From contig JBDHUS010000001.1 of the NCBI GenBank assembly GCA_039809325.1, forward strand, positions 391-64,390: a stretch of 64,000 nt of DNA. The letters run 5' to 3'. The notes below the pieces were generated by a model. The model searched no databases. It was not told the origin of the DNA and saw nothing but the letters and a program-made list of their open reading frames with translations. The position numbers and the translations under genes were made by a program. Of the stretch, positions 4,057 through 63,132 are shown piece by piece. Within the stretch, counting starts at the first letter, position 1. Each line of letters opens with the position of its first letter. This stretch comes from Minisyncoccia bacterium. Its GTDB lineage: Bacteria > Patescibacteriota > Minisyncoccia > Phycocordibacterales > UBA5272.

Positions 4057-5499
4057 TTAAAAATCAAACCTACTCTCTAAATACTTATCTAAATCTATAA
4101 TCTTCACTCTTTCCTGCTCCATAGTATCTCTATCACGGACTGTCACTGACTCATCACTCACACTATCGTAGTCAAAAGTTATACAATATGGAGTCCCTAT
4201 CTCATCTTGTCTTCTATATCTTTTTCCAATACTTCCAGAAATATCAAATTCTGCAAAATACTTTTTTGATAAATCTTTCCAGATCTTGCGAGCCGGCTCT
4301 AATAATTCTTCTTTTTTAAATAGTGGAAATACTGCTACTTTTACCGGAGAAAGCCTTTTATCTAATTTCAATACTACTCTCTCTTCTGTATTACTATTTT
4401 TATCTTGCAATTTTTCTTTTGTATATGCATTATCTATAAAAGCAAGCATCATGCGAGCAACTCCAACTGAAGTTTCTACAATGTGAGGAATAAATCTTTC
4501 ACGAGTAATTTCATCAAAATATGTTAAATCCTTCCCAGAAAATTTTTGATGTTGTGATAAATCCCAATCTCCTCTAGCATGAATTCCTTCTAATTCTTTT
4601 GGATCTCCACCCAACATTTTATATTTATACTCAATATCATATGCATCACTAGCATAATGAGCTAATTTTTCATGCTTATACCAATTAAGACTATCTTTTT
4701 CAATCCCATATTCTAAATAAAAATTCCATCTATATTTTTTCCACTCATTAAAATATTCTTCTGTGGTGTTACCGTCTGCGGAAACTGGATTAAAAAAATA
4801 CTGCATTTCCATTTGTTCAAATTCTCTTGTTCTAAAAATAAATTGTTTTGTTACTATTTCATTTCTAAAAGCTTTTCCAATTTGGGCTATACCAAAAGGA
4901 AGTTTTGGGTGTAAAGAGTCTAATGTATTTTTATACTCTAAATAAATTCCTCCACAAGTTTCTGGTCTTAAATATACAACATTTTCTTCATTAAGAGCTT
5001 CTGTTGGAGAACCAAGATTACTTTTTACCATTAAAGAAAATATTTTTGCTTCTGTTAATTCTGCTTTGCCACAATTTGCACATATTAATTTTTTTTCTAA
5101 TCCTAATTTGTCTAATTCTTTATTTATAAAGTCTAAAGAAGCTTTATCAGCATTTATATCAAAACTCTCTAAGATATGATCTGCTCGAAATCTCATTTTA
5201 CAATTCTTGCAATCTATTTGTGGGTCATTAAAGGTATCAATATGACCGGAAGCTTTCCAGGTTGTAGGATGCATAAATATTCCAGAGTCGAGAGCTAAAA
5301 CATCGTCTCTTTCTTGAATCATGCTTTTCATCCAAGCATCTTTAATATTTTTTAAAAGTAAATATCCATAATGTCCATAATCATAAACACCATTAAATCC
5401 TCCGTATATTTCACTTGAAGGATACACAAATCCCCTACTCTTTAGAAAAGCAATCATTTCTATCATTAAATTATTTTCTTCTTTTTTCTTTTCTGACAT
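4057..5499 (-). CDS. glyQS: glycine--tRNA ligase (class II, dimeric GlyQS type)
   Basis: 480 aa. The N-terminal motif IYGGFNGVYDYGHYG and class II aaRS motifs are typical of alpha2 GlyRS. Confidence 0.9.
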   Translation of the reverse strand: MSEKKKEENNLMIEMIAFLKSRGFVYPSSEIYGGFNGVYDYGHYGYLLLKNIKDAWMKSMIQERDDVLALDSGIFMHPTTWKASGHIDTFNDPQIDCKNCKMRFRADHILESFDINADKASLDFINKELDKLGLEKKLICANCGKAELTEAKIFSLMVKSNLGSPTEALNEENVVYLRPETCGGIYLEYKNTLDSLHPKLPFGIAQIGKAFRNEIVTKQFIFRTREFEQMEMQYFFNPVSADGNTTEEYFNEWKKYRWNFYLEYGIEKDSLNWYKHEKLAHYASDAYDIEYKYKMLGGDPKELEGIHARGDWDLSQHQKFSGKDLTYFDEITRERFIPHIVETSVGVARMMLAFIDNAYTKEKLQDKNSNTEERVVLKLDKRLSPVKVAVFPLFKKEELLEPARKIWKDLSKKYFAEFDISGSIGKRYRRQDEIGTPYCITFDYDSVSDESVTVRDRDTMEQERVKIIDLDKYLESRFDF

Positions 5500-15885: not shown

Positions 15886-18800
15886 TTAGCTTGCAGGAGC
15901 GGGATCATCCGGATTTACCAAAGGTATTGTAGAGGAAGAATTATCAGTATTTTCTGGATCTGTAGAACTAGCAACAGTTGTGTCAAGATTATCTGCTGAC
16001 TCTCCTCCGCCTATTGATTCAGGTTCTTCTTCTGCGCCGCTCCCTCCGGTCGCGCCGCTTCCACCCGCATCCACACCACCTCCACCAATAGTATTAATTT
16101 TATTAATAGCATTTTCCAAAGTGTCACCATCAGTACAAAATCTTGATCCGTCAGATTTTTTGAAACAAAGTTTATTTTCTATTTCTACTCTATTAAAGTA
16201 TCCAACAACCGCAGTTATCTTTGCTACAACAAAATCATGAATAATAGAAATTTTATTATTAACTTTTTCTAAAATAATATTTAAGACAGATTTATTATAA
16301 TTATTATTTTCATTAATAATTAAATTAAGTGTGTTTGTTGCGTTTGTATTATCTATCATATCTGGAGTACTAGAACCTGTCAGAGTTGTGAATTGATCTT
16401 TCAAAGCATTCACAATAGTTGCTATGATTGGCCTATCTTGAAGAGATAAATATCCATTAGGTGATGTTGATACTGCTTCTGGTATTGCATTTTGTATGTT
16501 TTGAGCAGAGAAACCAGTATAGAAGTTATTAGTATCTAGTCCGGATGTTTCATTCCATTTGTATGAGATTGGGTTTATTTTTAATAGATCTAGTATAGAT
16601 CTATTGTATGGAGTTATGTTTTCTTTTAGTCTTTCGTCTGATGATACTGATAGGTTACCATTTGCGTCAGTGGTGAGTGTACCGGCTCCGAAACTAGAGA
16701 ATCTTATTGTACCTGATGCATGTAATGTAGCTGTTGGTGATGTTGTTCCTAGTCCTACTCCAATGTTACCTCGTAGGAATGTTTTAGTGATGGAGGTGTT
16801 ACCGAGGGTGACGGAGTTGGAGCCGTTTCCTGTGGCATTGTATCCTATTACTATTTCATTAGAACCACCATCTGTAAGAGCTTTAGTTAAAGAACCTAGA
16901 AGTACGGAAGTACTCATAAAAGTTAGCTTTACAGACCCTCCTGATATAAATTTTCCTGCGTCAGCACCAATTACAACATTATAATCTCCTTTTGTTACAT
17001 TAAGCATAGAGTTTATTCCTATAGAGCTATTCCCGTACCCAGCATCAAGGGAATATAAAGATTGTACTCCTATAGCCACGCTAGCGCTAGAACTTGTAGA
17101 ATTTCTTAAAGAAGATAGACCTATAGCAACATTACTTCCTCCATTTATATTATTAAAAAGTGTAGCTACGCCTACAGCAACATTCAAAGAACCCGTTCTA
17201 TTCTCTTTTAAAGACCCCTGTCCCAATGCCACATTATTATATCCGGTAGTATTTGAACTTAATGTATTATCTCCTACAGCTGTGTTGTAGGAACTTTCAT
17301 AATTGTATGTTGCCATTTTACCCATATTAAAATTACCTGAATTCTTACCTAAAAATATATTACTTCCTACAGTAGTCACTGCCCCATTATCTCCATAATT
17401 AAAATTATGTAAAAATGGGACTCCGTCTGAATATATTACTCCTATCACTTCTGATGAAGTAGAATTTTGTGTTGATGGTAGATATATATTTGATTCTGAT
17501 TTTAAAGAAGAAAATGTTCCAATATTTGGCTTAGCTATACCTATTGCCATTGGTGAAGAGAATATTGAAGAAAGATTACTTGCTAATAATACATTCGGTA
17601 TATTATTTACTATATTTTCTGTTTGAAAGTTTTCTTTTATGAATTTAGCTACTTGTTCTGCTACTACTTTATATCCATAGTTATTTAAATGCAGCCCATC
17701 GTAAGATAAAGAACTGGGTATTACATCATTATCAATATCTATTAAATCTTGCGCTGTTGGTATAATATTTGCATCTTGTAATCCTCGCTCTATTAAATAT
17801 GTACGGATATCAAAATAATTATTTGGATAAGTTGACGCAAGATCATTATTTAATTGTATAATGGTATTATAATTAACTTCTCCTTTTCTTTCTAAATTTT
17901 TATTTGCATTTATTACTGATAAAATTAAATACTTTTGATTTCCATTCAGATTTGCAACCATAGCAGCTATATCTGCTTCTGCTTGTGTTGGATTATTAAA
18001 ATTATTCCTTCCTGTCCAGATAACTGATATACCATTATTTAAATTTCTATTATCAATAATAAAAGTAGATGAAGTTGTAGAGACAATTAATCCGTTTACA
18101 TCTCTTGAAAATAAAATTGATCCAGAACTATATTTTAATGTACCATATATTCCAGCAAGTGTTCCTTTTATACCGTTAGCAGGACTTTGAGCTGTTACTG
18201 GCTCATATCCTATAGGAAAAGTAACAGTTACTGTCGCACCTGCTGTTGCTGGTATTTCTCCACCAACTATTGTTACAGTTGGTTGGTATGCTCCTTGACG
18301 GACAGCAATTTGAGTTGAGCCTTGACCACCTACTCCATTATTATAAACAAGAATATTCAATATTCTAGATAAAACATTTGGATAATTATTGCCAACCGTA
18401 GAGCCACCTCCCGATGTCAAACTATCCCCCCAAGCCGTCACAAAACTACTAGGATTTACTGTGCTTACTACCTCACTATTATCAGCAAAATTTAACCCTA
18501 ATGAAGCTAAAGTTGGTGTAGGATTATTTACTATTGTAGTGCTCTGTGTTGGGACAAATTGATATTGTGTAGAATTTGGAGTAAATATAGACGCCCAATT
18601 TGTATTAGTATTTGTTGTATTTATTGGTATATCTAAATTATTTGCTGTAGTAAATGATTTTTTATCTATTTCTGAAAGCTTTGCATTTAAAGTATTTATT
18701 TGTTTTTGTAAAGCATTTATTTCTTGAGAATAATCTTTATTATCAGTATTTTTATCTACTATTTCATTTGTTTTATTTATTTTTTCTGAACTCTTTGTAT

Positions 18801-25314: not shown

Positions 25315-25701
25315 GGGAGTGTCAGGATTCGACACATAATTCTTTGTAAATGTGGTTTCCGATAATGAAAATATATCGTTAAATCTTTTCAAAATATGTT
25401 GCAAACAAAACTGCAAAAGCTGTGCCTTCTCCTTTCGGATGGGCATTCGCTCCGGTAGCCGCTTAATTAAGCCGCTTTGGTGCTGACCTTTATTTACATA
25501 TCGTAAAGAGCTCGGCAATATAAAGAATATGTGTAGAAAATTTTAAGTTAGCTTTCTCTAAAATTTTTGAAAAATAAAAAGCTAAGCGGAGCTATTTTGT
25601 TTATTTAATAAGCTTCGACGAAAATCAATAAATAAACTATGAAACTAGACTCATTTATAAAAATTATCTGCACGGGGGTTCAACTCCCCCCACTTCCACA
25701 A
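25315..25701 (+). ncRNA. ssrA: tmRNA (SsrA); CCA not encoded
   Basis: - The 5' end GGGAGTGTCAGGATTCGACAC resembles GGGGCUGAUUCUGGAUUCGAC.
- The 3' end CGGGGGTTCAACTCCCCCCACTTCCAC-A forms a T-arm plus an acceptor strand that pairs with the 5' GGGAGUG.
- The tag ORF ends ...GWAFAPVAA-TAA (25464-25466) followed by TTAA. Confidence 0.7.
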
Positions 25702-34255: not shown

Positions 34256-35749
34256 TTAAACTCTAGCAAAAAGTGGCTTTTCTGGCATTTTGTTTTCTTT
34301 TACAAGTTCATATATTTTCATACTAGTTTTAGGCATAAAGAAATATAAGTGGTGAGATATAAATAATAAATCGATAATACATTTTTTTAAAATCTCTTTT
34401 CCATCTACTATTTCTTTTTGATTTTCACTTTTTAAAAGTTTAAATGGTGCAGTTTCTTGAATATATTCATCTAGCTTTTTTTGTTTATCTGTCACAAAAT
34501 GAATTGCTTCATTTAATTTAAAATTATTTAGATAATTTTTATAATTTTCATTTAAATTAATTTTTTCTACTTCTTCTATTATTTTAGAAATTTCTAGCTC
34601 ATTTAAATATTGATTTGATAATTTCATTATACGATTTACTTGGTTACCAAGTCCATTTTGTAAAAAAATAATATATGAATTTTTAATTGATTCATGAGTA
34701 ATGTCACTATCTTCAAAATTTGATACTTCATGAGTAAGTACAAATCGCAGTACTTCTTCTGGGTATTCTGCTACTTCTTTATAATTATTAATAACTTCAA
34801 AAGGGCTTATCACATTTCCAATACTCTTACTCATTTTCTGTCCTCCTGAAATTATAAAACCATTAATAATAATATTTGTAGAATTTGGAATGTCTGCTGC
34901 CATTAGCATGGCTTGCCAAATTGCTGACTGATATCTAAGATTGTCCTTACCGCAATATTGTACCACTTCCCTTTTATCATTCTCTTTTTGGACCCAAAAC
35001 TTTTCAAAATTTTCTCCGTTTGGCCAAGATAAAGTTGAAATATAATTTGTAAGAGCGTCAAACCAAACATACATTACATGTTCCTCATCATCTGGCACTG
35101 GTATACCCCAACTCATTTTGGAAGCAAGACGAGAAATGGAAAAATCTTGTAAACCATTTTTTACAAAATTTTTAATCTCATTAAATCTAAAATCAGGAAT
35201 AACAAAATTAGGATTTTCTTCGTAAAATTTTAAAAGTCTTTCTTCTAACTTTGAAAAAGCAAAAAAATAATTTTCCTCTTCTCTTATTTCTATTTTTCTA
35301 TTTGAATGTATAGCACAATCTCCATTTTCATCAAGTTCATTATCTTGCTTTTCTGATTCACAACCAACACAATATTTCATTTTATAATTTTTTTTATAGA
35401 TAAAACCATTTTCTTTTACTCTTCTCCATATCTCTTGAGCTGCTTCTATATGTTTTTTTTCTGTTGTACGAATAAAAGTATTATTAGAAATATTTAAAAG
35501 TTCCAATGCTTCAATAAATTTTTGAGCATTTCGATCAACATACTTTTGTGTATCTATATCCTCTTCTTTTGCGGCCTCAAAAAGTTTTTGACCATGCTCA
35601 TCGGTACCGGTATTGAAAAATACATTATATCCCTCGCTTCTTTTATATCTTACAACAACATCCGCTCTCACAATTTCAAGAGCAAAGCCAATATGTGGAT
35701 TTGCATTCACATATGGAAGAGTGGTTGTTAAATAAAAATTCTTATTCAT
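34256..35749 (-). CDS. metG: methionine--tRNA ligase
   Basis: P-Y-V-N-A-N-P-H-I-G (HIGH region) and KMSKS (GQKMSKSIGN). Confidence 0.9.
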   Translation of the reverse strand: MNKNFYLTTTLPYVNANPHIGFALEIVRADVVVRYKRSEGYNVFFNTGTDEHGQKLFEAAKEEDIDTQKYVDRNAQKFIEALELLNISNNTFIRTTEKKHIEAAQEIWRRVKENGFIYKKNYKMKYCVGCESEKQDNELDENGDCAIHSNRKIEIREEENYFFAFSKLEERLLKFYEENPNFVIPDFRFNEIKNFVKNGLQDFSISRLASKMSWGIPVPDDEEHVMYVWFDALTNYISTLSWPNGENFEKFWVQKENDKREVVQYCGKDNLRYQSAIWQAMLMAADIPNSTNIIINGFIISGGQKMSKSIGNVISPFEVINNYKEVAEYPEEVLRFVLTHEVSNFEDSDITHESIKNSYIIFLQNGLGNQVNRIMKLSNQYLNELEISKIIEEVEKINLNENYKNYLNNFKLNEAIHFVTDKQKKLDEYIQETAPFKLLKSENQKEIVDGKEILKKCIIDLLFISHHLYFFMPKTSMKIYELVKENKMPEKPLFARV

Positions 35750-39463: not shown

Positions 39464-40048
39464 TTATATCATGCTATGATTTAGTACAAAAACAATATGC
39501 TCCTTGACTTCTTTTTCATTTAAGAGAAAGTGCGTAAAAAAATCTTTCATTTCAAAATTTTTGTATTCTATAATATCTTTCACCCCTATAACTTTTGCAT
39601 CAGCATATCCTGTGTCTACAAGCACCAAATAATAAATCAATATTTTTAACTTAAGCGGGTCCATCTGGGTAAGACCATTTGAACAAATCGTTAAAAATTT
39701 TAACTTTTCAAAAAGCTTTTTATATGTTTTCTTTTCCTCTAAGAATCTACTTATTGTTTCAGAGATTAATGATTTTATTTCAGAAAAATATTGTGAAGTG
39801 CCAAGATTTTCTTTTATCTCTTCTACCCCAGTGAGTCTCCAAATATCTTTTCCTTTTACAAGAGTCATATTTAAAAACTCATTTTTTTTAGCATTCATGC
39901 GGAGCTTGGCATTTATTTTTCTTATACTTCTTGCAAGTACAAAAATAATACCAAAATCTTTGGTCCAAACTTTATAAACAAGATCATTTTCGTCTTGTGC
40001 ATATTCTTTCAAAATAAAAGCTTCAGTTGTGTATTTTTCAATGGACAT
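39464..40048 (-). CDS. possible short RecO-like protein
   Basis: The N-terminal OB-fold-like pattern EAFILKEYAQDENDLVYKVWTKDFGIIFVLARSIRK resembles the RecO N-domain. Confidence 0.35.
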   Translation of the reverse strand: MSIEKYTTEAFILKEYAQDENDLVYKVWTKDFGIIFVLARSIRKINAKLRMNAKKNEFLNMTLVKGKDIWRLTGVEEIKENLGTSQYFSEIKSLISETISRFLEEKKTYKKLFEKLKFLTICSNGLTQMDPLKLKILIYYLVLVDTGYADAKVIGVKDIIEYKNFEMKDFFTHFLLNEKEVKEHIVFVLNHSMI

Positions 40049-43000
40049 TAATTTTCCAAGCTAATTTTTTCCTCATTTCCTTCAATAAATTTAATTATAG
40101 AAAGCTTACAATCTTTTTTTAACTCTTCTTCAAGAGATTTGATAAAATCAATCCTTTCTTTACCAGATTCTACAAATAGTACAGCAATATCGCTTGGAGT
40201 AAGATTTTTATCTTTTCTTAAATCTTTTATTTTCCTTGTTAGCTCACGATAATCACCTTCCTTTTTAAGTTCTTGTGTTATTTCTAAATCAAGAATTACA
40301 TTTTGATTTTCAAAATATTCTTTAGTATTGTCTAACAATGCCTCTTTTACATTTATTTCCTCTTTCAAAATATCAAGATATTTTTTATCTATTTTTTTAT
40401 TTATAAATAATTTTGAAAGTGGCTGACGAACTGGAATATTATTTTTTTGTCTTTGCATCAAAGCTTCTGTTACAAGAGCTCTCACCTCATCCATTTCTTC
40501 TATAACTTTTTCATCTATAACAAATATATTCTTTGGCCAAGCTTCTAAATGTGCAGATTCTTTTTTCTCTAAAGTGTATTTATTTATAGACAAATAAATT
40601 CTCTCTGCCAAAAATGGCATAAATGGAGCAATTATCTTTGAGAATTCATTGAGTATTTTGTAGAGTGTAAATTCGGCATTCATTTTCTCTTCCTCGCCAG
40701 ACTCTCCTTTTAACCTTTCACGAGATCTTCTTAGCCACCAAGTAGAAAGGTCGTCGATGAACTTTTCAAGTGGACGAGTCGCTTGATCAAGCTTATACTC
40801 ATTCATATTTTTTGTTACTATCTCTAAAACTTCGGCAACTCTTGTGAAAATCCAAATATCCATTGGATTTTCTATTTTTCTTTCTTTTGGAGGAAGTTCA
40901 ATATTTAACATTTCATAAAAACTCAAAACATTTTCTAATTTTGCCACAACTTTTTTATAAGTCTCTTCTACGTTTGCATCTGAAAATGGAATATTTTCTG
41001 CACACATTGCTGGCGACGAAAGCAGAGTCTGACGAAAAGCGTCAGCACCATATTTTTCAACTAGCACCATAGGATCAGTATAATTCCTTTTGCTCTTACT
41101 CATTTTTTCTCCATCAGCTGCCGTTAAAAGACCATTTACTATTACATTTTTATATGGAGATTTTTCAAAAATACCTACAGAAATATTTAAAAGAGAATAA
41201 AACCAACCTCTAGTTTGATCAAGGCCTTCTGCTATAAAATCAGCTGGAAAATTTTTATTAAAAATATTCTGATTTTCAAATGGATAATGAATTTGTGCCA
41301 TCGGCATAGAACCTGACTCGAACCAACAATCAAATACATCTGGGATTCTCTCCAATTCTTCTTTATTCTCTCCTAATAATTTAATATTATCTATATAAGG
41401 TTTATGAAGATTTATTTTTCCTGTTTCATCTCTTGGCACTAATTTTAAATCTAATTTTCTTATTTCTGCATTTTTAGGATAGAGTTTCGTTTCTTCTGTC
41501 AATTCATCTTCTATAAGTTTTTCTTTCGTTATAAGCTCTCCTGCAAAAGCTATCATTCTCATAGGGCCTCCATGAGTTACTATTAAAATATTTTTTCCTT
41601 CATATCTATTTTCTAATTCATATATTCCTTTCATCACTCTTTTTATCACATCATTATGTGATTCTCCTCCGCCGAGTTTTAGATCTAAATTTAAATAATT
41701 AATACCGTAATCTTTTTCTATTTCTGTATTAGGTTTTTTGCTATAAGTTCCTAGATTGATTTCTGTAAAGTGCTCATCTATTATTACTTCTTTTTCTTCT
41801 GCCATTATTTTAGCGGTTTCAAAAGCTCTAAGATACGGAGAAGATATTATTATGTCAAAATCTATACCTATTTCTTCTCTTGCTTTTTTAACCTGCTCTA
41901 TACCATTTTCTGTAAGATGATTATCTGGATCCATGTCTGTTTCCTCTATACCTAATACATTGTGTTTTGCCTCACCATGCCTCATTATATAATATTGGTT
42001 TTTTGGTTTATTAATATTTTCTTTAGCTAATTCTTCCAAAGAAGATACTATTTTTATCTCATTTCCATTTTTATTTTTCCATATAGGTATAGGAGCCCCC
42101 CAATATCTACTTCTTGATACTGCCCAATCACGTGCCCCTTCAAGCCATTTTCCAAATCTCCCATCACGAATATTTTCTGGTATCCAATTTACTTTAGAAT
42201 TCTCTTTTAATAATTCAGATTTTATTTCTGGAACTTTTATAAACCAAGAACTAGTAGCATAATTAAGAAGAGGTGTCTCACATCTCCAACATGTAGGATA
42301 AGCATGTATTAATTTTTCTTTTGCAAAAATAAGCCCTCTACTTGCTAAACTTTTTATAATTAAAATATCAGCTCCTTGATTATCGTCTTTTGTCTTAACT
42401 TTCACTCGAGGAAAATCTATGACTTCTTTTGTAAACTCTCCATTCATTTCTACATGTCTTATAACTGGTAAAGATTTTTCTTTAGATAAATTCAAATCAT
42501 CTTCTCCAAAAGCTGGAGCAATATGTACTATACCTGTCCCTGTATCCAAAGAGACAAATTCACCATTTACTATGATATAAATATTCTCTTTATTTTCTAA
42601 TTTACTATTTATGAAATAATCAAAAACTGGTTTATACTTTTTTCCAACTAATTTTTCTCCAAAAAAAGTTTCAATTATTTCTACATTCAAATTTACTTTT
42701 TTAAATACTTCTTCTGCTCTTTCTTTTGCTAGAATATAAATCTCTCCTGATTCAGCTTTAGCTTTTATATATTCAAATTTTTCATTTATGGCAAGTGCAA
42801 CATTCCCTGGAAGAGTCCACGGCGTAGTAGTCCAAGCTAAAAGAAAAGTATTTGGCTCATTTTCAAGCTCAAATTTTGCGGTTACAGAAATATCTGTTAA
42901 ATCTTTATATCCTTGCGCCACTTCAGATTGAGCAAGTGTTGTCTCACATCTTGGACAAATATGCATACTTTTATATCCTTCAAATACAAGGCCTTTTTTG

Positions 43001-43500
43001 TAAAGCTCAGAAAAAGCCCACCAGACTGACTCTGTATAATTTGGATCCATTGTGCTGTATGGATTTTCCATATCTATCCATCTACCAAATCTTGGTATTG
43101 TTTCTTTCCATTCTTTTTCATATGCAAATACACTTTCTTCTGCTTTTTTATTAAAATTATTTATTCCAAATCCTTCTATTTCTTTTTTAGAATTTAATTT
43201 AAATTTCTTTTCAATCAAATTTTCAATCGGAAGCCCATGTGTATCCCAACCCCATACACGACGAACATATTTACCATTCATGGTTTGAAATCTTGGTATT
43301 GCGTCTTTTATTGTTCCAGCTAAAAGATGGCCATGATGAGGAAGACCTGTTGCAAATGGAGGCCCGTCATAAAAAGTAAAACTTTCTGGATTTTCTACCT
43401 CACCGGGATTCTTAAGAGATTTTTCGAATATTTTATTCTCTTTCCAAAATTTTAATATCTCTAATTCTTTTTCGTTTATACTTTTGTTTTTATTATTCAT
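40048..43500 (-). CDS. ileS: isoleucine--tRNA ligase with an inserted histidine-phosphatase (PGM-like, RHG) domain; start moved to MNNKNK
   Basis: HIGH (PHHGHLLAG), WDTHGLPIE, WTTTPWTLP and KMSKS (GEKMSKSKRN). A roughly 185-aa insert (aa 520-705) carries YYIMRHGEAKHN and LIVTHGGPMR. Confidence 0.9.
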   Translation of the reverse strand: MNNKNKSINEKELEILKFWKENKIFEKSLKNPGEVENPESFTFYDGPPFATGLPHHGHLLAGTIKDAIPRFQTMNGKYVRRVWGWDTHGLPIENLIEKKFKLNSKKEIEGFGINNFNKKAEESVFAYEKEWKETIPRFGRWIDMENPYSTMDPNYTESVWWAFSELYKKGLVFEGYKSMHICPRCETTLAQSEVAQGYKDLTDISVTAKFELENEPNTFLLAWTTTPWTLPGNVALAINEKFEYIKAKAESGEIYILAKERAEEVFKKVNLNVEIIETFFGEKLVGKKYKPVFDYFINSKLENKENIYIIVNGEFVSLDTGTGIVHIAPAFGEDDLNLSKEKSLPVIRHVEMNGEFTKEVIDFPRVKVKTKDDNQGADILIIKSLASRGLIFAKEKLIHAYPTCWRCETPLLNYATSSWFIKVPEIKSELLKENSKVNWIPENIRDGRFGKWLEGARDWAVSRSRYWGAPIPIWKNKNGNEIKIVSSLEELAKENINKPKNQYYIMRHGEAKHNVLGIEETDMDPDNHLTENGIEQVKKAREEIGIDFDIIISSPYLRAFETAKIMAEEKEVIIDEHFTEINLGTYSKKPNTEIEKDYGINYLNLDLKLGGGESHNDVIKRVMKGIYELENRYEGKNILIVTHGGPMRMIAFAGELITKEKLIEDELTEETKLYPKNAEIRKLDLKLVPRDETGKINLHKPYIDNIKLLGENKEELERIPDVFDCWFESGSMPMAQIHYPFENQNIFNKNFPADFIAEGLDQTRGWFYSLLNISVGIFEKSPYKNVIVNGLLTAADGEKMSKSKRNYTDPMVLVEKYGADAFRQTLLSSPAMCAENIPFSDANVEETYKKVVAKLENVLSFYEMLNIELPPKERKIENPMDIWIFTRVAEVLEIVTKNMNEYKLDQATRPLEKFIDDLSTWWLRRSRERLKGESGEEEKMNAEFTLYKILNEFSKIIAPFMPFLAERIYLSINKYTLEKKESAHLEAWPKNIFVIDEKVIEEMDEVRALVTEALMQRQKNNIPVRQPLSKLFINKKIDKKYLDILKEEINVKEALLDNTKEYFENQNVILDLEITQELKKEGDYRELTRKIKDLRKDKNLTPSDIAVLFVESGKERIDFIKSLEEELKKDCKLSIIKFIEGNEEKISLEN

Positions 43501-43504
43501 AATT

Positions 43505-43745
43505 TTGATTGAAAATTTGTTAATAAATTCTTTAAATTTTTCTAAAATAAAAATCACCCAAAACTCTTTCAAGTTCAAGGGCGATTTTGTCGCGGTACCA
43601 CCTTGATTCCAGAAAATATTTCTGCTTCATTTATGAGGGTCTATTTGGAGCGACACCTCCGGCGTCGCCCCTTTCTTCCTCAAGCTCTGGAGTGATTAGT
43701 TCCGTCTCTGCTTTATACTTTTATTATATCAAAAAATATAAAAAT
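43505..43745 (-). promoter_or_regulatory. T-box leader upstream of ileS
   Basis: - The minus strand reads AATCAAGGTGGTACCGCGACAAAATCGCCCTTG, matching the T-box consensus AAUNAGGGUGGNACCGCG with its antiterminator.
- The competing terminator is AAAATCGCCC...GGGTGATTTT followed by a U-run.
- An AUC (Ile) triplet followed by A lies upstream (CUAAUCACU). Confidence 0.55.
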
Positions 43746-43751
43746 ACAAAA

Positions 43752-44177
43752 TTAAAAATCTTTTACATGTTCATACACTTTAGAATATTTTGACGTGACA
43801 AATCCATGTTTTTTATAAAAATTTAAAGATTCTTCAGTAGCATTTAAGAAAATCCATTTCAATCCTGCACCTTTTACCTTTTCCTCAAAATATTTTAAAA
43901 GCTGGCCACCAAGACCCATACCTGTCTTTTCTGGAACTGTCGCAATATACCAAAGTATACAGCCTCCATGTAAAAGCTTTTCAGAAATCAAGACAGAAAC
44001 TAAAATATCTTTATCAAAAAGTCCTAAGGCAAAAGCTTTTTCTTCTTGTCTTCCTCTTATCAAATCTCCAACCCATCCAGAACTAGGAAGCTCACCATCC
44101 GCATATCGCAATGTATCTTGATTTAATATTTTTAAAACATTATCTAAATCTTGTAGTGTTAAATTTTTTATTTCCAT
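43752..44177 (-). CDS. GNAT family N-acetyltransferase
   Basis: Acetyl-CoA binding motif GMGLGGQLLKYFEEKVK...KHGF. Confidence 0.7.
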   Translation of the reverse strand: MEIKNLTLQDLDNVLKILNQDTLRYADGELPSSGWVGDLIRGRQEEKAFALGLFDKDILVSVLISEKLLHGGCILWYIATVPEKTGMGLGGQLLKYFEEKVKGAGLKWIFLNATEESLNFYKKHGFVTSKYSKVYEHVKDF

Positions 44178-44181
44178 TTTT

Positions 44182-45984
44182 TTACATCCTCTCCACCTCT
44201 TCTATACCAATAGTATTTAAGCTAGACTTAAATACTTTCAAGAAATATTTTACTAAAATAATATTTGAATTTGTTTCTTTTTTATCCTCAGAAATAATTT
44301 TTTCTTTTCCATAAAAAGTATTAAAAGCTTGAGCAAGTTCAAAAAGATACTTTACTACAAGTTGTGGTGACAATTCTTCTATCCCTCTTTTAATAATCGA
44401 CTCTGACTCTATTAACTTTTTATATAAAGGTAGAGAATTTATAGAAATACTTTTTACTTCTTCATTAAAATCATTATTCACTTTTTCTAAAATAGAATTT
44501 GCTCTTGCATATGTATAAAGAAGATATGGACCAGTATTCCCTTCGAAATTAAGAGAATTCTCTAAGTCAAAATCTATACTGAGTCCTGGCTTTGATTTTA
44601 ATATTACTACTTTTAATGCTGATAATGATATATTTTTTATTAAATTATTTTTCTGTATTTCATTTAAATCTTTTGTTTTCTCCCCAAGTCTTTCTTCTAC
44701 TTTTTTATTTACCATTCCAAGCAATTCTTCTACTTTAAGTACATTTCCAAGTCTACTAGAGATTCTTTCTCCTTTTAAATTAAGTCTGCCGTGTGGTATA
44801 TGATTACTTTTTTCTGCTATTTCAGCATAAACACCTCCTAATTCTTTTGCTACTTGAAGAACTATATTAAAATGTGGCACTTGCTCTATATCTGTTATAA
44901 AAATATTATAATCAAAAGGAAAATACCCATATTTAAGATCGATTAAGCCCAAATCTTTTGCTTCATATGTTGGATGTCCTTCACTATTTATAAAAATACT
45001 TTTTATAGTTTCATCGCTCTCTTTATTTTTTAATTTTTTAGTATCAAAAAACACAGCTCCATTTTCACCTATTTTAAATATTTCTTGGCTCTCTGGTTTA
45101 TTTAAATTTTCTTTTACTATTTCTTCTCCTCTTATTCCAGCTTCTGATTCATAAATAAAATAATCGAAATGACTACCTAAATTCTCTAAAATATTTTTAA
45201 AATAATTTATATTTATATCTTTTGCTTTTTGAAATATTTGATAGTCTTCTGTTTCAGAATTTCTTTCAAAAAGATTTCTAGCAACTAATTTTATTTCGTC
45301 TTGTTTATCAGGATTTTCTTCGTAAAATTTTACCCCTTCTACATATGCATCACCCAATATATTTATAATATTCTGATTAAAAAAAGACCAATTCTTTTTA
45401 TTTTTTAATATATATATTGCTTTTGCAATACCGACAGAAATATCTGAAGGAAAAGACACAATTCGCATATCGCTACCACTTTTCTTTATCATAGAAACTA
45501 TAGCTTCACCTATAATATTATTCATAAGATGCCCGATATGAAATGGCTTAAAAAGATTTGGAGAAGAATGTTCTATTAAGATTTTTTTATCTGAAAATTT
45601 TGTTTCTATAAATTTTAAATCAGAAATTCTCTTTACTTCCTTAATCAAAAATTCTTCTTTTAAAGAAAAATTTATAAATCCATTTGGAGCAAGAGAGACT
45701 TCTTTTATGATTTTTGAAAAATTATTTTCATTATTATTTAAATTAAAATTAATCTCTTTTATAATTTCCTCCCCTATAACCTTTGGAGTTTTTCCAACTT
45801 TCTTTGCCAGAGTTAAAGCTATATTTGTAGCCACATCTCCAAATTTACTATTAACTTCATCTATAAATGAAACATCAAATTTAAATTTTTCCACTTCTTC
45901 TCCATCAGTTTCTTCAGAAGTTAAATAGCTTAGCCTGTAAGCAATATAAGAAAGTTCATTTTTTAAGTTTTCTAGCAATGTCAT
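44182..45984 (-). CDS. argS: arginine--tRNA ligase
   Basis: HIGH (PFHIGHLMN) and a C-terminal DALR-type anticodon-binding region; 600 aa. Confidence 0.9.
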   Translation of the reverse strand: MTLLENLKNELSYIAYRLSYLTSEETDGEEVEKFKFDVSFIDEVNSKFGDVATNIALTLAKKVGKTPKVIGEEIIKEINFNLNNNENNFSKIIKEVSLAPNGFINFSLKEEFLIKEVKRISDLKFIETKFSDKKILIEHSSPNLFKPFHIGHLMNNIIGEAIVSMIKKSGSDMRIVSFPSDISVGIAKAIYILKNKKNWSFFNQNIINILGDAYVEGVKFYEENPDKQDEIKLVARNLFERNSETEDYQIFQKAKDININYFKNILENLGSHFDYFIYESEAGIRGEEIVKENLNKPESQEIFKIGENGAVFFDTKKLKNKESDETIKSIFINSEGHPTYEAKDLGLIDLKYGYFPFDYNIFITDIEQVPHFNIVLQVAKELGGVYAEIAEKSNHIPHGRLNLKGERISSRLGNVLKVEELLGMVNKKVEERLGEKTKDLNEIQKNNLIKNISLSALKVVILKSKPGLSIDFDLENSLNFEGNTGPYLLYTYARANSILEKVNNDFNEEVKSISINSLPLYKKLIESESIIKRGIEELSPQLVVKYLFELAQAFNTFYGKEKIISEDKKETNSNIILVKYFLKVFKSSLNTIGIEEVERM

Positions 45985-51328: not shown

Positions 51329-52084
51329 ATGTTTAAAAAATATTTTTACTTAGTCCGTCATGGTGAGACTATTTTAAATAGTCAAAAAAGAAGACAAGAC
51401 GATAAAGGTAGACTTTCTGAAAGAGGTATGAAAGAAGTTGAAGATTTAGGTAACAGACTTCTTAATATGCATATAGAGAAAATGTTTGTTTCTCCGTATG
51501 AAAGAACAATGGAAACAGCGAAAATAATCAATAAATATTTAAAATTAAAAGAAAACAGGATTATAATCACAGATCTTATAGCTGAAAGAAAAAATCCGTC
51601 TAATATTATTGGTTTACATTATGATGATCCGATTGCCAAATCTTTTATAGATAGAATGGATAAAAGTATTCATGATCCAAATTTAAGAATTGCAGACGAA
51701 GAAAATTTTCAAGATTTGAAAGAAAGAGCAATAAAAGCTCAAAAATTTTTAATAAATAATAGTAAGAAATATAATTTGTGTGTTACTCATGGAATATTTC
51801 TTAAAATGTTTTTATCAACTCTTTTGTATGGTAAAGATTTGAGAGTAAAAGATTATATACAAATGAATTTATATAATCCTTCGGATAATGCTGGGGTAAC
51901 TTTTATTAAATATTCCCCTCTTAAAAATTTCTTTATGCCACTACGAAAATTTTTCGACTCAATCTTTGGTGATGAAGTAGATGGCGATGATGATGGAAAT
52001 CCTAAACCTGACAAATATTCACCTTGGGAAATTCTCGCCTATAATGATTATACAAGGGACGGATTTAAAAGACTTCGTATTTAA
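51329..52084 (+). CDS. histidine phosphatase family protein (PGM-like); start moved to MFKKYFYLVRHGE
   Basis: LVRHGET and CVTHGIF motifs. Its architecture resembles the domain inserted in IleRS. Confidence 0.65.
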   Translation: MFKKYFYLVRHGETILNSQKRRQDDKGRLSERGMKEVEDLGNRLLNMHIEKMFVSPYERTMETAKIINKYLKLKENRIIITDLIAERKNPSNIIGLHYDDPIAKSFIDRMDKSIHDPNLRIADEENFQDLKERAIKAQKFLINNSKKYNLCVTHGIFLKMFLSTLLYGKDLRVKDYIQMNLYNPSDNAGVTFIKYSPLKNFFMPLRKFFDSIFGDEVDGDDDGNPKPDKYSPWEILAYNDYTRDGFKRLRI

Positions 52085-61017: not shown

Positions 61018-63132
61018 CTATCCCTCCACAACTTGTCTGACTTTTTCTGCTAGTTTTTCCGAAAATTCTTTTATATTAACATTTGCTATATTATCTGAAT
61101 AAAATGTTTTAACATGCTCAGTACCTGAACCTATACCAAGCCCAATAATATGAACATCTTTTTCCTGTTCTATCTTTTTTACTATTTCTTTCAAATCATA
61201 TCCTTCATGCTGTGGAGACTCTACTGGAACACCATCAGATAGCACAAATAATATTTTCTTTTTTTCTTCTCTATTTTTTATTTTCTTATACATTTCGTCC
61301 ACAGCCCATCCATCATCATTATAATCTGCTCTACCACCACTATGATTATCAACTTCACTTAACATATCTTCTGTACCCTCTCTAAGATCATCAGTATAAT
61401 CTTCGTCAAATTCTTTATATTCATATAGTCTATCATTAAATCCTGCCACAGATAATTTAATCCCTATATTTCTAAGAGCTTCGCAAAGGACTACTACAGC
61501 CTTATAAGTTTCACTGATTTTCGTACCACTCATACTTCCAGATAAATCTACCAATATTTGAATTGCGTAGTCTTTTTCTAAAGGTAATTCTTTTTTCATA
61601 AAAACGTTTAGACTGTCTACTCCTGTGGCTTCACCTCTAATTTCTCTTTTTACGTCTATCATCATTCCACTTCTATAACCAGAATTCCAAGCGTTTCTTT
61701 TTCTCTCAATAAAAATATCTCTTAATTCATTTTCTAACTTAAATATTATGGGAGATACATCTTCAAGAACCTTTTGGTAACTATTTTGTCCATTATATTT
61801 TTCTCTATCAAAATCTTTTTTAGCTTTTTCAATAGCTTCCTTTAAAGCTTGTCTCATTTTATCTCTTCTTTCTCTCTCATTATCTTTTGAGTAATCTTTT
61901 TCTTCTCTTTGAGATTTATCATCTTTGGATTTTTCTTCCGAATCACTACTTGTTTCTTTCTCTTTTTGTAGTTCAGCTTTAGATTCTAAGTATTCATTCA
62001 TCTCTTTCTCTATTTCTCTAATTATTTGATCTGCTTTTTCTTTTATTTCTTGATCAGACATTTTAGAAGGATTGGATTTATTATCTTGAATATCTGGATC
62101 ACTTAGAGTAGAGTTTACATCTTGTTGTGAATTTTCATTTTGTTTATTAGATTTTTCTCCATCCATATTATCAGGTCTTTGTTCTTCTTCAGTCTTATTA
62201 GAATTATCTTTAGTTTCACCTTCTTTACTTTGTGGTTTCCGATTATCTTTTTCACCCTCTCCAGAATTTTGCTCTTTATTTACTTCTTGATTTTTATTTT
62301 CACTTTTTTGATTATCATCTTGTCTTATTTTATCTTCTGTGTCCTTTGTATCTGAATCAACTAAAGTTTTAAAAACAGGCCAGACTTCTTCTAGATTTAT
62401 TTTATATGACTCTCTAGCATACTCTTGTACGACTTGCTCTCCATCTAATTTTTCTCCATTTAACAGCATACCTTTCTCTACCTCTTTTCTAAGTGGATAA
62501 GTTAGCCAACTTCTTCTTGCAGAACTAAGAGTTTTTTCTACCACTTCTATTACTTCCTTTGGAAGTTCTTTGTCTATTTCTATCTTTTCTCCTTTTGTCT
62601 CAGCAATCCATTGCTTTATGTATTCAAGTCCTGCTTGCATGAATCTGGGGACTCTTCCAACTTTTTGTTTTGCTTTTTCTTTCATTTTTCTTTCAAATTC
62701 AGCATCGAGATCATACGAAAATATCATCTCTTGCTTAAACTTTGGTACATTGTCGGCGACATAGTTATTCATCCTAGGATCTTCTATTGCATTCATCATA
62801 GAAGAAAACCCTGGTTGATTCCATATTTCATCTGGAATGATACCTATAACCCTAGAAATTTTTCTATGTCCAGCTTCATGTTGAATAACAAAACGTAGAT
62901 AATCAATTGGTTTTTCCAATAAATCTTTTGCGTCACACCTCACAATATTATTCTTAAAATCCCAATGCCAACCTTGACCCTCATTAACCTCTACCTTCAT
63001 ACTTACATCAGTTGCTACCATTCTACAAAGTGGAGTCAACAAAGATAATCTTTGTTTTATTATTTTTCTGTCTTCATAATTAAAATTATCAAGAATACTG
63101 TGTTTTTTACCAAAAGATTCTAATCTGTCCAT
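61018..63132 (-). CDS. vWA-domain protein with an N-terminal HExxH (DUF2201_N-like) domain and a long acidic low-complexity linker
   Basis: HEAGHRK; roughly 250 aa rich in E/K/D/S/N; C-terminal MIDAS motif ILVDLSGSMSG ... VLSDG. Confidence 0.6.
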   Translation of the reverse strand: MDRLESFGKKHSILDNFNYEDRKIIKQRLSLLTPLCRMVATDVSMKVEVNEGQGWHWDFKNNIVRCDAKDLLEKPIDYLRFVIQHEAGHRKISRVIGIIPDEIWNQPGFSSMMNAIEDPRMNNYVADNVPKFKQEMIFSYDLDAEFERKMKEKAKQKVGRVPRFMQAGLEYIKQWIAETKGEKIEIDKELPKEVIEVVEKTLSSARRSWLTYPLRKEVEKGMLLNGEKLDGEQVVQEYARESYKINLEEVWPVFKTLVDSDTKDTEDKIRQDDNQKSENKNQEVNKEQNSGEGEKDNRKPQSKEGETKDNSNKTEEEQRPDNMDGEKSNKQNENSQQDVNSTLSDPDIQDNKSNPSKMSDQEIKEKADQIIREIEKEMNEYLESKAELQKEKETSSDSEEKSKDDKSQREEKDYSKDNERERRDKMRQALKEAIEKAKKDFDREKYNGQNSYQKVLEDVSPIIFKLENELRDIFIERKRNAWNSGYRSGMMIDVKREIRGEATGVDSLNVFMKKELPLEKDYAIQILVDLSGSMSGTKISETYKAVVVLCEALRNIGIKLSVAGFNDRLYEYKEFDEDYTDDLREGTEDMLSEVDNHSGGRADYNDDGWAVDEMYKKIKNREEKKKILFVLSDGVPVESPQHEGYDLKEIVKKIEQEKDVHIIGLGIGSGTEHVKTFYSDNIANVNIKEFSEKLAEKVRQVVEG

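Follow-up and report, generated by a model that had tools for sequence, protein, structure and literature searches.

A predicted histidine phosphatase nested in the CP3 region of isoleucyl-tRNA synthetase from a Minisyncoccia bacterium and its Parcubacteria relatives

Aminoacyl-tRNA synthetases (aaRS) are among the most conserved and best-studied enzymes. In the class Ia enzymes for isoleucine, valine and leucine (IleRS, ValRS, LeuRS), the universal CP1 editing domain hydrolyzes aminoacyl esters. As an established case, it shows that a further active site can be nested in the catalytic core and serve the tRNA 3' end, and no other nested catalytic domain is known from a class Ia core. A single sentence in Kantor et al. 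(2013, mBio 4:e00708-13; PMC3812714) describes an IleRS of SR1, and also of the genome ACD80, that is split by “phosphoglycerate mutase domains”, and the literature searched holds no later analysis of phosphatase-bearing IleRS. The subject of the present analysis is the ileS gene (40048..43500, minus strand; 1150 codons, stop codon at 40048..40050) in a stretch of 64,000 nucleotides from a Minisyncoccia bacterium (GenBank assembly GCA_039809325.1, contig JBDHUS010000001.1), which is referred to as the window. The gene encodes a type-2 (eukaryote-like) IleRS with a nested phosphatase domain, and its one polypeptide would comprise two enzymes, a complete type-2 IleRS and a branch-1 histidine phosphatase that is nested in the CP3 region. 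A preceding sequence-only reading of the window had pointed to this domain and was not aware of any described IleRS with a phosphatase; this has to be corrected by the sentence of Kantor et al., and it holds insofar as no later analysis came up.

The host synthetase and the insertion site

In the open reading frame (ORF) list of the window, the gene lies in a single unbroken minus-strand ORF of 40048..43578, counted from a TTG codon. The true start is the ATG at 43500, which gives a product of 1150 residues that is identical to the database protein P0005. With 853.5 bits, this protein exceeds the cut-off of the NCBIfam ileS equivalog model TIGR00392 (621.4 bits), and its nearest solved relatives in PDB alignments are the IleRS of human and yeast, P. 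megaterium IleRS2 and T. thermophilus IleRS (E ~1e-195 to 1e-211), the type-1 IleRS of S. aureus being a weaker match (7e-89). Pfam assigns five families to the protein, namely tRNA-synt_1 (6e-133), tRNA-synt_1g (1.4e-18), Anticodon_1 (6.6e-28), DUF5915 (8e-10) and His_Phos_1 (4.7e-32), and the His_Phos_1 match is placed between the two halves of the tRNA-synt_1 match.

With domain limits taken from yeast IleRS (PMC7955072), residues 1-492 (42025..43500; this and all further parts of the gene lie on the minus strand) comprise the first Rossmann half, the CP core, the CP1 editing domain, CP2, the CP2-3 linker and the start of CP3, and their aligned counterparts are residues 14-489 in human IleRS and 6-489 in the yeast enzyme. 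Residues 697-1150 (40051..41412) contain the remainder of CP3 (NLHKPYID...), the second Rossmann half, the KMSKS signature, the anticodon-binding domain and the C-terminal DUF5915, and this C-terminal part of the synthetase aligns to residues 498-888 of the human enzyme. The HIGH signature is present as HHGH (residues 55-58, 43327..43338), with H55 and G57 invariant across 117 homologues, and the KMSKS signature (residues 799-803, 41092..41106) has K799, S801 and K802 invariant in the same set. The CP1 editing domain is present and intact, and aligns to 1wk8, 1wny and 1ue0. With HHGH, KMSKS, the CP1 editing domain and the anticodon-binding domain in place and conserved, the window protein is a complete IleRS and looks like a working enzyme, and the continuous frame with intact KMSKS and anticodon-binding regions, which had been read from the sequence, is found in one ORF with an Anticodon_1 match.

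Between the conserved segments RYWGAPIPIW (residues 465-474) and PDVFDCWFESG (residues 720-730) there are 245 residues, in good agreement with the earlier count of about 250, whereas human and yeast IleRS have about 50 residues over the same interval. When aligned to solved IleRS, the window protein loses its counterpart after residue 492 and regains it at residue 697, while the solved chains move only from 489 to 498, so that the extra piece corresponds to residues 493-696 (41413..42024), with an uncertainty of about 8 residues at each end. On the basis of this gap in the PDB alignments, of an AlphaFold2 (AF2) model and of Foldseek comparisons, the piece consists of a nested histidine-phosphatase domain with two short linkers; it takes the place of about 8 residues of insert-free IleRS, and it encloses the region of 41460-42010 in which the domain had been placed by the sequence-only reading. 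The linkers that flank the domain are short, confidently modelled and partly conserved (KPKN..., ...VPRDETG).

In yeast IleRS, CP2 comprises residues 420-458 and CP3 residues 459-526, and the CP2-3 linker (453-ARDWNVSRNRYWG-465) forms the wall of the pocket in which the tRNA 3' end (A76) and reveromycin are bound (PMC7955072). As the alignment breaks at yeast residues 489/499, the insertion is in CP3, and not in CP2, the segment named in the sequence-only reading, at a point that comes after the CP2-3 linker of the tRNA 3'-end pocket. No other part of the IleRS core varies as much as CP3, which, depending on the lineage, contains a Zn motif (T. thermophilus), three helices (S. aureus) or a beta-beta-alpha-alpha arrangement (Candida) (PMC7191050). 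In the sequence of the window protein, CP3 has no Cys knuckle.

Identity, conservation and spread of the inserted domain

The His_Phos_1 (PF00300) match covers residues 504-651 (41548..41991) and reaches 111.7 bits against a gathering threshold of 21.7 bits, so that the assignment of the insert to this family, which a profile search might have contradicted, is borne out by that search as well as by the modelled fold and by Foldseek. The full catalytic set of the branch-1 enzymes is found in the insert, with roles that are assigned from established family knowledge: Arg507, the nucleophile His508 and Gly509 form the RHG motif (41974..41982), Arg558 is the second phosphate-binding arginine in the motif SPxxR (41827..41829), Glu580 is the predicted proton donor in the motif ExxxG (41761..41763), and His643 is the second catalytic histidine in the motif THGG (41572..41574). 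The RHG and THGG motifs had already been recognized in the sequence-only reading. The AF2 model of residues 486-706, based on 26 homologues, has a predicted local distance difference test score (pLDDT) of 93.5 and a predicted template modelling score (pTM) of 0.90. Foldseek yields 292 matches in the PDB at E<=1e-3, the best 50 of which all belong to the histidine-phosphatase family. The top matches (E 1e-13 to 1e-11, TM ~0.7) are the metal-independent phosphoserine phosphatases PspA (4ij5/4ij6) and PSP (6m1x/5zr2), followed by a mycobacterial hydrolase (6s2q), PhoE (1h2e), the glucosyl-3-phosphoglycerate phosphatase GpgP (4qih) and CobC (6e4b), and true mutases rank below. A phmmer search of PDB sequences agrees with this order of relatives (PspA 4ij5, PSP 6m1x/5zkk, PhoE 1h2e and CobC 6e4b; E 7e-12 to 1e-6).

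A closer classification by NCBIfam models is not obtained. The best matches, dPGM_arch and ribazole_cobC, are both under the cut-off; in case of the dPGM models, the insert reaches 85 of 225 bits (NF038349, dPGM_arch) and 24 of 81.7 bits (TIGR01258, pgm_1), and in case of the PspA and CobC equivalogs 65.8 of 350 (NF045917), 68.9 of 277 (NF009994) and 82.7 of 162.9 bits (TIGR03162). The residues following the Glu (RHY, RR), which we take to be substrate residues of dPGM, are absent from the insert. Sequence and model thus describe the insert as a complete branch-1 histidine phosphatase of about 200 residues, of the small-substrate PhoE/PspA/CobC type, and as all equivalog cut-offs are missed, it is a generic compact small-substrate member of branch 1 rather than an identifiable phosphoglycerate mutase (PGM), PSP or CobC.

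The window encodes a second, stand-alone His_Phos_1 protein (51329..52084, plus strand; Pfam E=2.5e-24) with a C-terminal extension of about 60 residues. A resemblance between this protein and the insert had been pointed out earlier; both are indeed His_Phos_1 proteins, and the resemblance does not go beyond the family level (27% identity, E=3e-8), for which reason a recent duplication of the stand-alone gene was rejected as origin of the insert. Both also match the phage family phrog_12933 (6e-27 for the stand-alone protein and 2e-15 for the nested domain).

The insert is not a peculiarity of this one gene. A check of orthologous ileS genes found PF00300 in all of the 120 best IleRS homologues, down to 53% identity, with names such as Nomurabacteria, Paceibacterota, Parcubacteria, Pacebacteria and, once, Gracilibacteria, and when each GTDB species was scanned by way of one genome, the insert turned up in at least 264 of them. 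Taxonomy here means the names that are attached to the database matches. The lineage-named matches of the scan are mostly Parcubacteria (Paceibacterota, Nomura-, Campbell-, Taylor-, Kaiser-, Colwell-, Yanofsky- and Zambryskibacteria, Minisyncoccia); about half of the matches are labelled ‘uncultured Candidatus Saccharibacteria’, which looks like a generic label on many of the loci, and others only ‘bacterium’ or ‘Patescibacteria group bacterium’. Two insert-bearing ileS genes are on short contigs of genomes labelled Crocinitomicaceae (L051, JBLIKX010000016.1) and Caldimicrobium (L078, CAYTDX010000203.1), and these are probably contigs of the candidate phyla radiation (CPR) that were mis-binned into other metagenome-assembled genomes. 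A word-indexed homologue search with the insert alone gave 4 matches, and the distribution rests on the whole-protein search and on the GTDB scan. In all 75 full-length proteins from GTDB, the insert occupies the same site, with a length of 189-206 residues, and the insert is, judging from these data, a lineage-wide and fixed trait of Parcubacteria IleRS. The database labels of these proteins are only IleRS or ‘class I tRNA ligase family protein’.

Across the 75 GTDB species, the IleRS core is 39-75% and the insert 29-63% identical to the window protein, and the residues R507, H508, R558, E580, E613, R621 and H643 are identical in all 75 as well as in the 117 database homologues. Counting the window protein, Arg and His of the RHG motif, Arg558, Glu580 and His643 are conserved in 76 of 76 sequences, and the Gly of the RHG motif in 74. 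The mean identity of the insert (0.37) is similar to that of the anticodon-binding domain (0.39) and of the C-terminal domain (0.37). As the catalytic residues are invariant while the insert as a whole drifts to 29-63% identity, no faster than the neighbouring domains, the pattern is the signature of a domain that is presumably kept for catalysis.

Outside this main group, the architecture is more varied. A HMMER search with the insert against 1.84 billion representatives gave 608 matches below 1e-10, and among the best 150 of these, 76 of the 86 proteins with at least 260 residues are aaRS, namely 75 IleRS and 1 ValRS; the other 10 have no similarity to IleRS or ValRS, and most of them are tandem two-domain phosphatases. 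Some IleRS have two to three His_Phos_1 copies, at four or more sites overall. The proteins P0127 and P0133 have one copy in CP3 and one in a loop of the anticodon-binding domain near residues 863-870, whereas P0132 and P0137, from contigs of up to 1.06 Mb, have no CP3 copy, with one copy after WFESGSMPYAS in place of the HYPFEN loop and another near residues 862-877. P0130 has a copy within a Zn-knuckle CP3 past the DLHK helix, one after HYPFANQ and a third one, and P0280 has a tandem pair in CP3. The proteins P0274-P0278 group with P0137 among these multi-copy variants.

In ValRS of CPR bacteria, parallels exist. P0210 is a ValRS with four copies (411 bits with the valS model and 199 bits with ileS), and among the 120 ValRS clusters nearest to it, 71 carry one to four copies; the named ones among the insert-bearing ValRS are from Gracilibacteria and Peregrinibacteria. 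Related ValRS of 880-985 residues, including one from Nomurabacteria, are without insert. The main ValRS site is between RIPVWY and DTLDTWFSSG, which is the loop homologous to the CP3 site of the window protein, and another site comes after SNQWFVDV. Of 87 ValRS copies, all have the nucleophilic His, 85-86 the Arg residues, 60 the Glu and 76 the second His. Nested His_Phos_1 domains were seen in the ValRS P0210, P0282, P0283, P0287, P0308, P0314 and P0345. The ValRS inserts are not close to that of the window, as indicated by the one ValRS among the 76 aaRS within the best 150 matches. A neighbour-joining tree of 180 domain copies, in which many short ‘stand-alone’ sequences are probably gene fragments, is star-like and poorly resolved, with the copies of other sites lying outside the main CP3 clade, and does not permit a firm conclusion on single versus multiple capture; the distant ValRS inserts and the non-nesting copies of other sites would be consistent with repeated, separate captures.

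Proposed function and rival readings

Our preferred reading, to which we give a probability of roughly 45%, is that the insert is an active phosphomonoesterase that is functionally tied to its class Ia synthetase and possibly acts at the tRNA 3' end. The steps of this reading are not equally firm. By analogy with the family, it can be proposed with fair confidence that the domain would turn over a phosphomonoester by the phospho-histidine mechanism: His508 would attack the phosphomonoester that is held by Arg507, Arg558 and His643, Glu580 would protonate the leaving group, and the phospho-histidine would then be hydrolyzed. With less confidence we infer that this activity is tied to the synthetase and that the domain is not a passenger, because fixation of such a domain has recurred, with apparent specificity for IleRS and its paralogue ValRS, in different loops and copy numbers, and because its position is within the catalytic core, in many cases in the loop after the tRNA 3'-end pocket. 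The weakest step is the speculative one that the substrate would be a phosphomonoester met at the aminoacylation site, which could be an adenosine end with a 2'- or 3'-phosphate, as on a tRNA whose 3' end is blocked, or else a nucleotide that arises as a by-product or acts as an inhibitor.

From the toxSAS enzymes it is known that charging is indeed blocked, in a tRNA-specific manner, by phosphorylation of the tRNA 3' (CCA) end (PMC11559606). A particular version of the preferred reading, which we regard as rather unlikely, would be an end-healing in cis, in which the domain removes a 3'(2')-phosphate or the remnant of a toxSAS-type 3'-pyrophosphate from the bound tRNA, so that IleRS or ValRS would repair its tRNA and then charge it. 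The nudix domain that was reported in the SR1 enzyme would then provide the pyrophosphate-cleaving step of a two-step removal. If such a healing takes place, it would constitute a third active site in a class Ia synthetase beside those for synthesis and editing.

Several observations weigh against a phosphatase that is coupled to aminoacylation. The AF2 model of the full-length protein, made with 50 sequences, is only moderately confident (pLDDT 77.5, pTM 0.66) and gives no confident docking of the domain. The surface of the insert is not consistently basic, with net charges from -18 to +15, where an RNA-handling domain might be. Small metabolites are the substrates of the nearest characterized relatives, PADLOC has no defence model that matches the insert or its stand-alone paralogue, and in the ValRS copies the Glu donor and the second His are less well kept than the nucleophile. 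That sites and copy numbers vary might just as well indicate that geometry plays no role, and a tRNA-end repair that is fused only to IleRS and ValRS would serve the tRNAs of these two enzymes alone.

What alternatives exist for a functional tie to the synthetase? The main rival, which we consider doubtful, is a Rosetta-stone type of passenger. In this case, the domain would be a common phosphatase or mutase of metabolism (such as a phosphoserine phosphatase, a short dPGM of the archaeal type or a PhoE-like enzyme of broad specificity) that works independently of aminoacylation and that, in streamlined CPR genomes, has found a place in tolerant loops on the surface of an essential and highly expressed protein. 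The metabolic nature of the closest structures and sequences (PspA, E. histolytica PSP, PhoE, GpgP, CobC) and of the best NCBIfam matches agrees with this, as do the several sites and copy numbers, which suggest that the exact geometry is not critical, the charge of the surface and the lack of a confident docking in the full-length model. CP3 is structurally variable and presumably tolerant (PMC7191050). However, the association is repeated and specific, as every long protein with IleRS or ValRS similarity among the best 150 matches is an IleRS or a ValRS, and no extra domain is found in the MetRS, ArgRS and class II synthetase of the same 64-kb window. The domain also lies inside the catalytic core instead of being fused to an end, up to four copies per chain are hard to explain for a housekeeping metabolic enzyme, the insert is under every NCBIfam equivalog cut-off, and a stand-alone His_Phos_1 gene is already available 8 kb away.

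An unlikely alternative is that the domain serves as a regulator or sensor, in which the phospho-histidine state or a ligand such as 2,3-bisphosphoglycerate, 3-phosphoglycerate or a nucleotide would shift the conformation of CP3 and of the CP2-3 linker and thereby tune the binding of the tRNA 3' end, linking the charging of Ile (or Val) to the metabolic state. For this purpose, the domain would be well placed in CP3 next to the linker that forms the tRNA 3'-end pocket, the linkers that attach it are of the short, confidently modelled and partly conserved kind described above, and phosphate-binding and phospho-acceptor residues are fully conserved. Copies are also found far from CP3, though, such as in the loop of the anticodon-binding domain, and the conserved Glu proton donor points to full turnover rather than to mere binding. 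We know of no such regulation for any aaRS, and nothing comparable was found in the literature searched.

Still less probable is a non-catalytic module that would use its bulk or a phosphate patch for gripping tRNA, in place of the Zn-knuckle or helical elaborations of CP3 in other enzymes. The differences of CP3 among IleRS lineages and the lack of a Cys knuckle in the window protein would fit such a role. Pseudo-enzymes normally lose the nucleophile or the acid, whereas here all catalytic residues are invariant in 75 species at 29-63% overall identity, and the charge is not consistently positive.

An artefact or selfish element finally, be it a chimeric assembly, an intein or a mobile in-frame cassette of no host benefit, can practically be dismissed, although several sites and copies in essential genes superficially resemble inteins and homing elements: an independent ENA assembly encodes the identical protein with the same neighbours (argS-GNAT-ileS-recO), which speaks against the misassembly that had been considered beforehand, hundreds of orthologues have the insert at the same site, Pfam finds no Hint or intein family and no additional family beyond the five in the window protein, the edges (...LEELA/KENINK... 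and ...DETGKI/NLHKPY...) show no Cys/Ser/Thr...His-Asn splice junctions, the enzymatic residues are under purifying selection, and the GC content and the GC content of third codon positions are similar in the insert (29.2 and 16.2%) and in the rest of the gene (30.5 and 17.8%). The earlier view that neither an intein nor a pseudogene is involved is upheld. As the insert matches its host gene in both GC values, a recent horizontal insertion was likewise rejected.

To return to a phosphatase that is tied to its synthetase, all Parcubacteria homologues that were recovered contain a second enzyme in the catalytic core of IleRS, with its active site fully preserved. The recurrence of such nesting argues that IleRS and ValRS of these episymbiotic and gene-poor bacteria need to be physically joined to a phosphatase. 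If this phosphatase is coupled to aminoacylation, via tRNA-end repair, removal of an inhibitor or by-product, or metabolic gating, it would represent a new functional layer in translation, as well as a lineage marker and a possible weak point of CPR bacteria. Even as a mere passenger, the domain would provide a striking case of domain nesting in an essential enzyme. The window gene appears to be just one member of a large and publicly visible family without characterized members.

Genomic surroundings and comparison with known systems

Downstream of ileS, the start of recO (39464..40048, minus strand) overlaps the ileS stop at 40048, and the order of ileS followed by recO is kept in 46 of 80 GTDB loci (L002-L081). 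Between argS and ileS, there is a gene for a small GNAT acetyltransferase of 141 residues (43752..44177, minus strand). GNAT toxins acetylate charged tRNA. This gene was rejected as a functional partner of the insert, as the adjacency occurs in 1 of 80 related loci, and it is probably unrelated. The other synthetases of the window, all on the minus strand, are MetRS (34256..35749), ArgRS (44182..45984) and a class II synthetase with HGTP anticodon domain (4057..5499). A tmRNA gene with the predicted tag peptide AKAVPSPFGWAFAPVAA is found on the plus strand (25315..25699). A protein of 851 residues (15886..18441, minus strand) has Peptidase_S74 at residues 601-657 as its only Pfam match, a domain that is the intramolecular chaperone of endosialidase and phage tail-spike proteins, and could be a surface fibre or a prophage remnant. 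A protein of 704 residues (61018..63132, minus strand) has a C-terminal VWA/CobT_C domain, and its N-terminal 500 residues are without Pfam match.

Among known enzymes with extra domains, the CP1 editing domain of IleRS, ValRS and LeuRS is similar to the insert in being a hydrolytic domain that is set into the Rossmann fold of the same enzymes; its fold is different, and the insert is restricted to certain lineages, is located in CP3, and is predicted to hydrolyze phosphomonoesters. The curated family NF040702 (ileS_w_GNAT), for which no paper was found in the literature searched, is another IleRS with an extra enzyme domain. Its model matches the IleRS parts of the window protein, yet with 296 bits versus a cut-off of 1999 the protein is not a member, and both the extra domain (GNAT) and the lineage are different. 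The bifunctional RNase H/acid phosphatases of the M. tuberculosis Rv2228c type (NF005567) join a CobC-like His_Phos_1 domain to a nucleic-acid enzyme, and the insert matches their phosphatase half (E=1.6e-17; 63.9 versus a cut-off of 326); these are end-to-end fusions with a different partner, whereas the insert of the window protein is nested. The phosphatases 4IJ5 (H. thermophilus PspA), 5ZKK/6M1X (E. histolytica PSP), 1H2E (B. stearothermophilus PhoE) and 6E4B (CobC) share the fold, the size of about 200 residues and the catalytic residues with the insert, but they are free-standing proteins with 23-27% identity to it.

The closest described system is the IleRS of SR1 (Absconditabacteria), which likewise is a CPR IleRS whose ORF is interrupted by at least one His_Phos_1 domain. 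The SR1 enzyme was described with two PGM domains and a nudix domain, whereas in the window protein there is just one copy, located in CP3, and Pfam yields no NUDIX match. The window protein belongs to the Parcubacteria, and unlike in the SR1 protein, there is a single CP3 copy in every homologue or genome that was recovered from that lineage, while multi-copy IleRS of the SR1 kind were recovered as P0127, P0132, P0137, P0130 and P0280. As far as can be told, the apparently new aspects here are that the insertion maps to CP3, that all recovered IleRS homologues of Parcubacteria have it, that its catalytic residues are strictly conserved, and that the domain shows a multi-site, multi-copy spread into ValRS.

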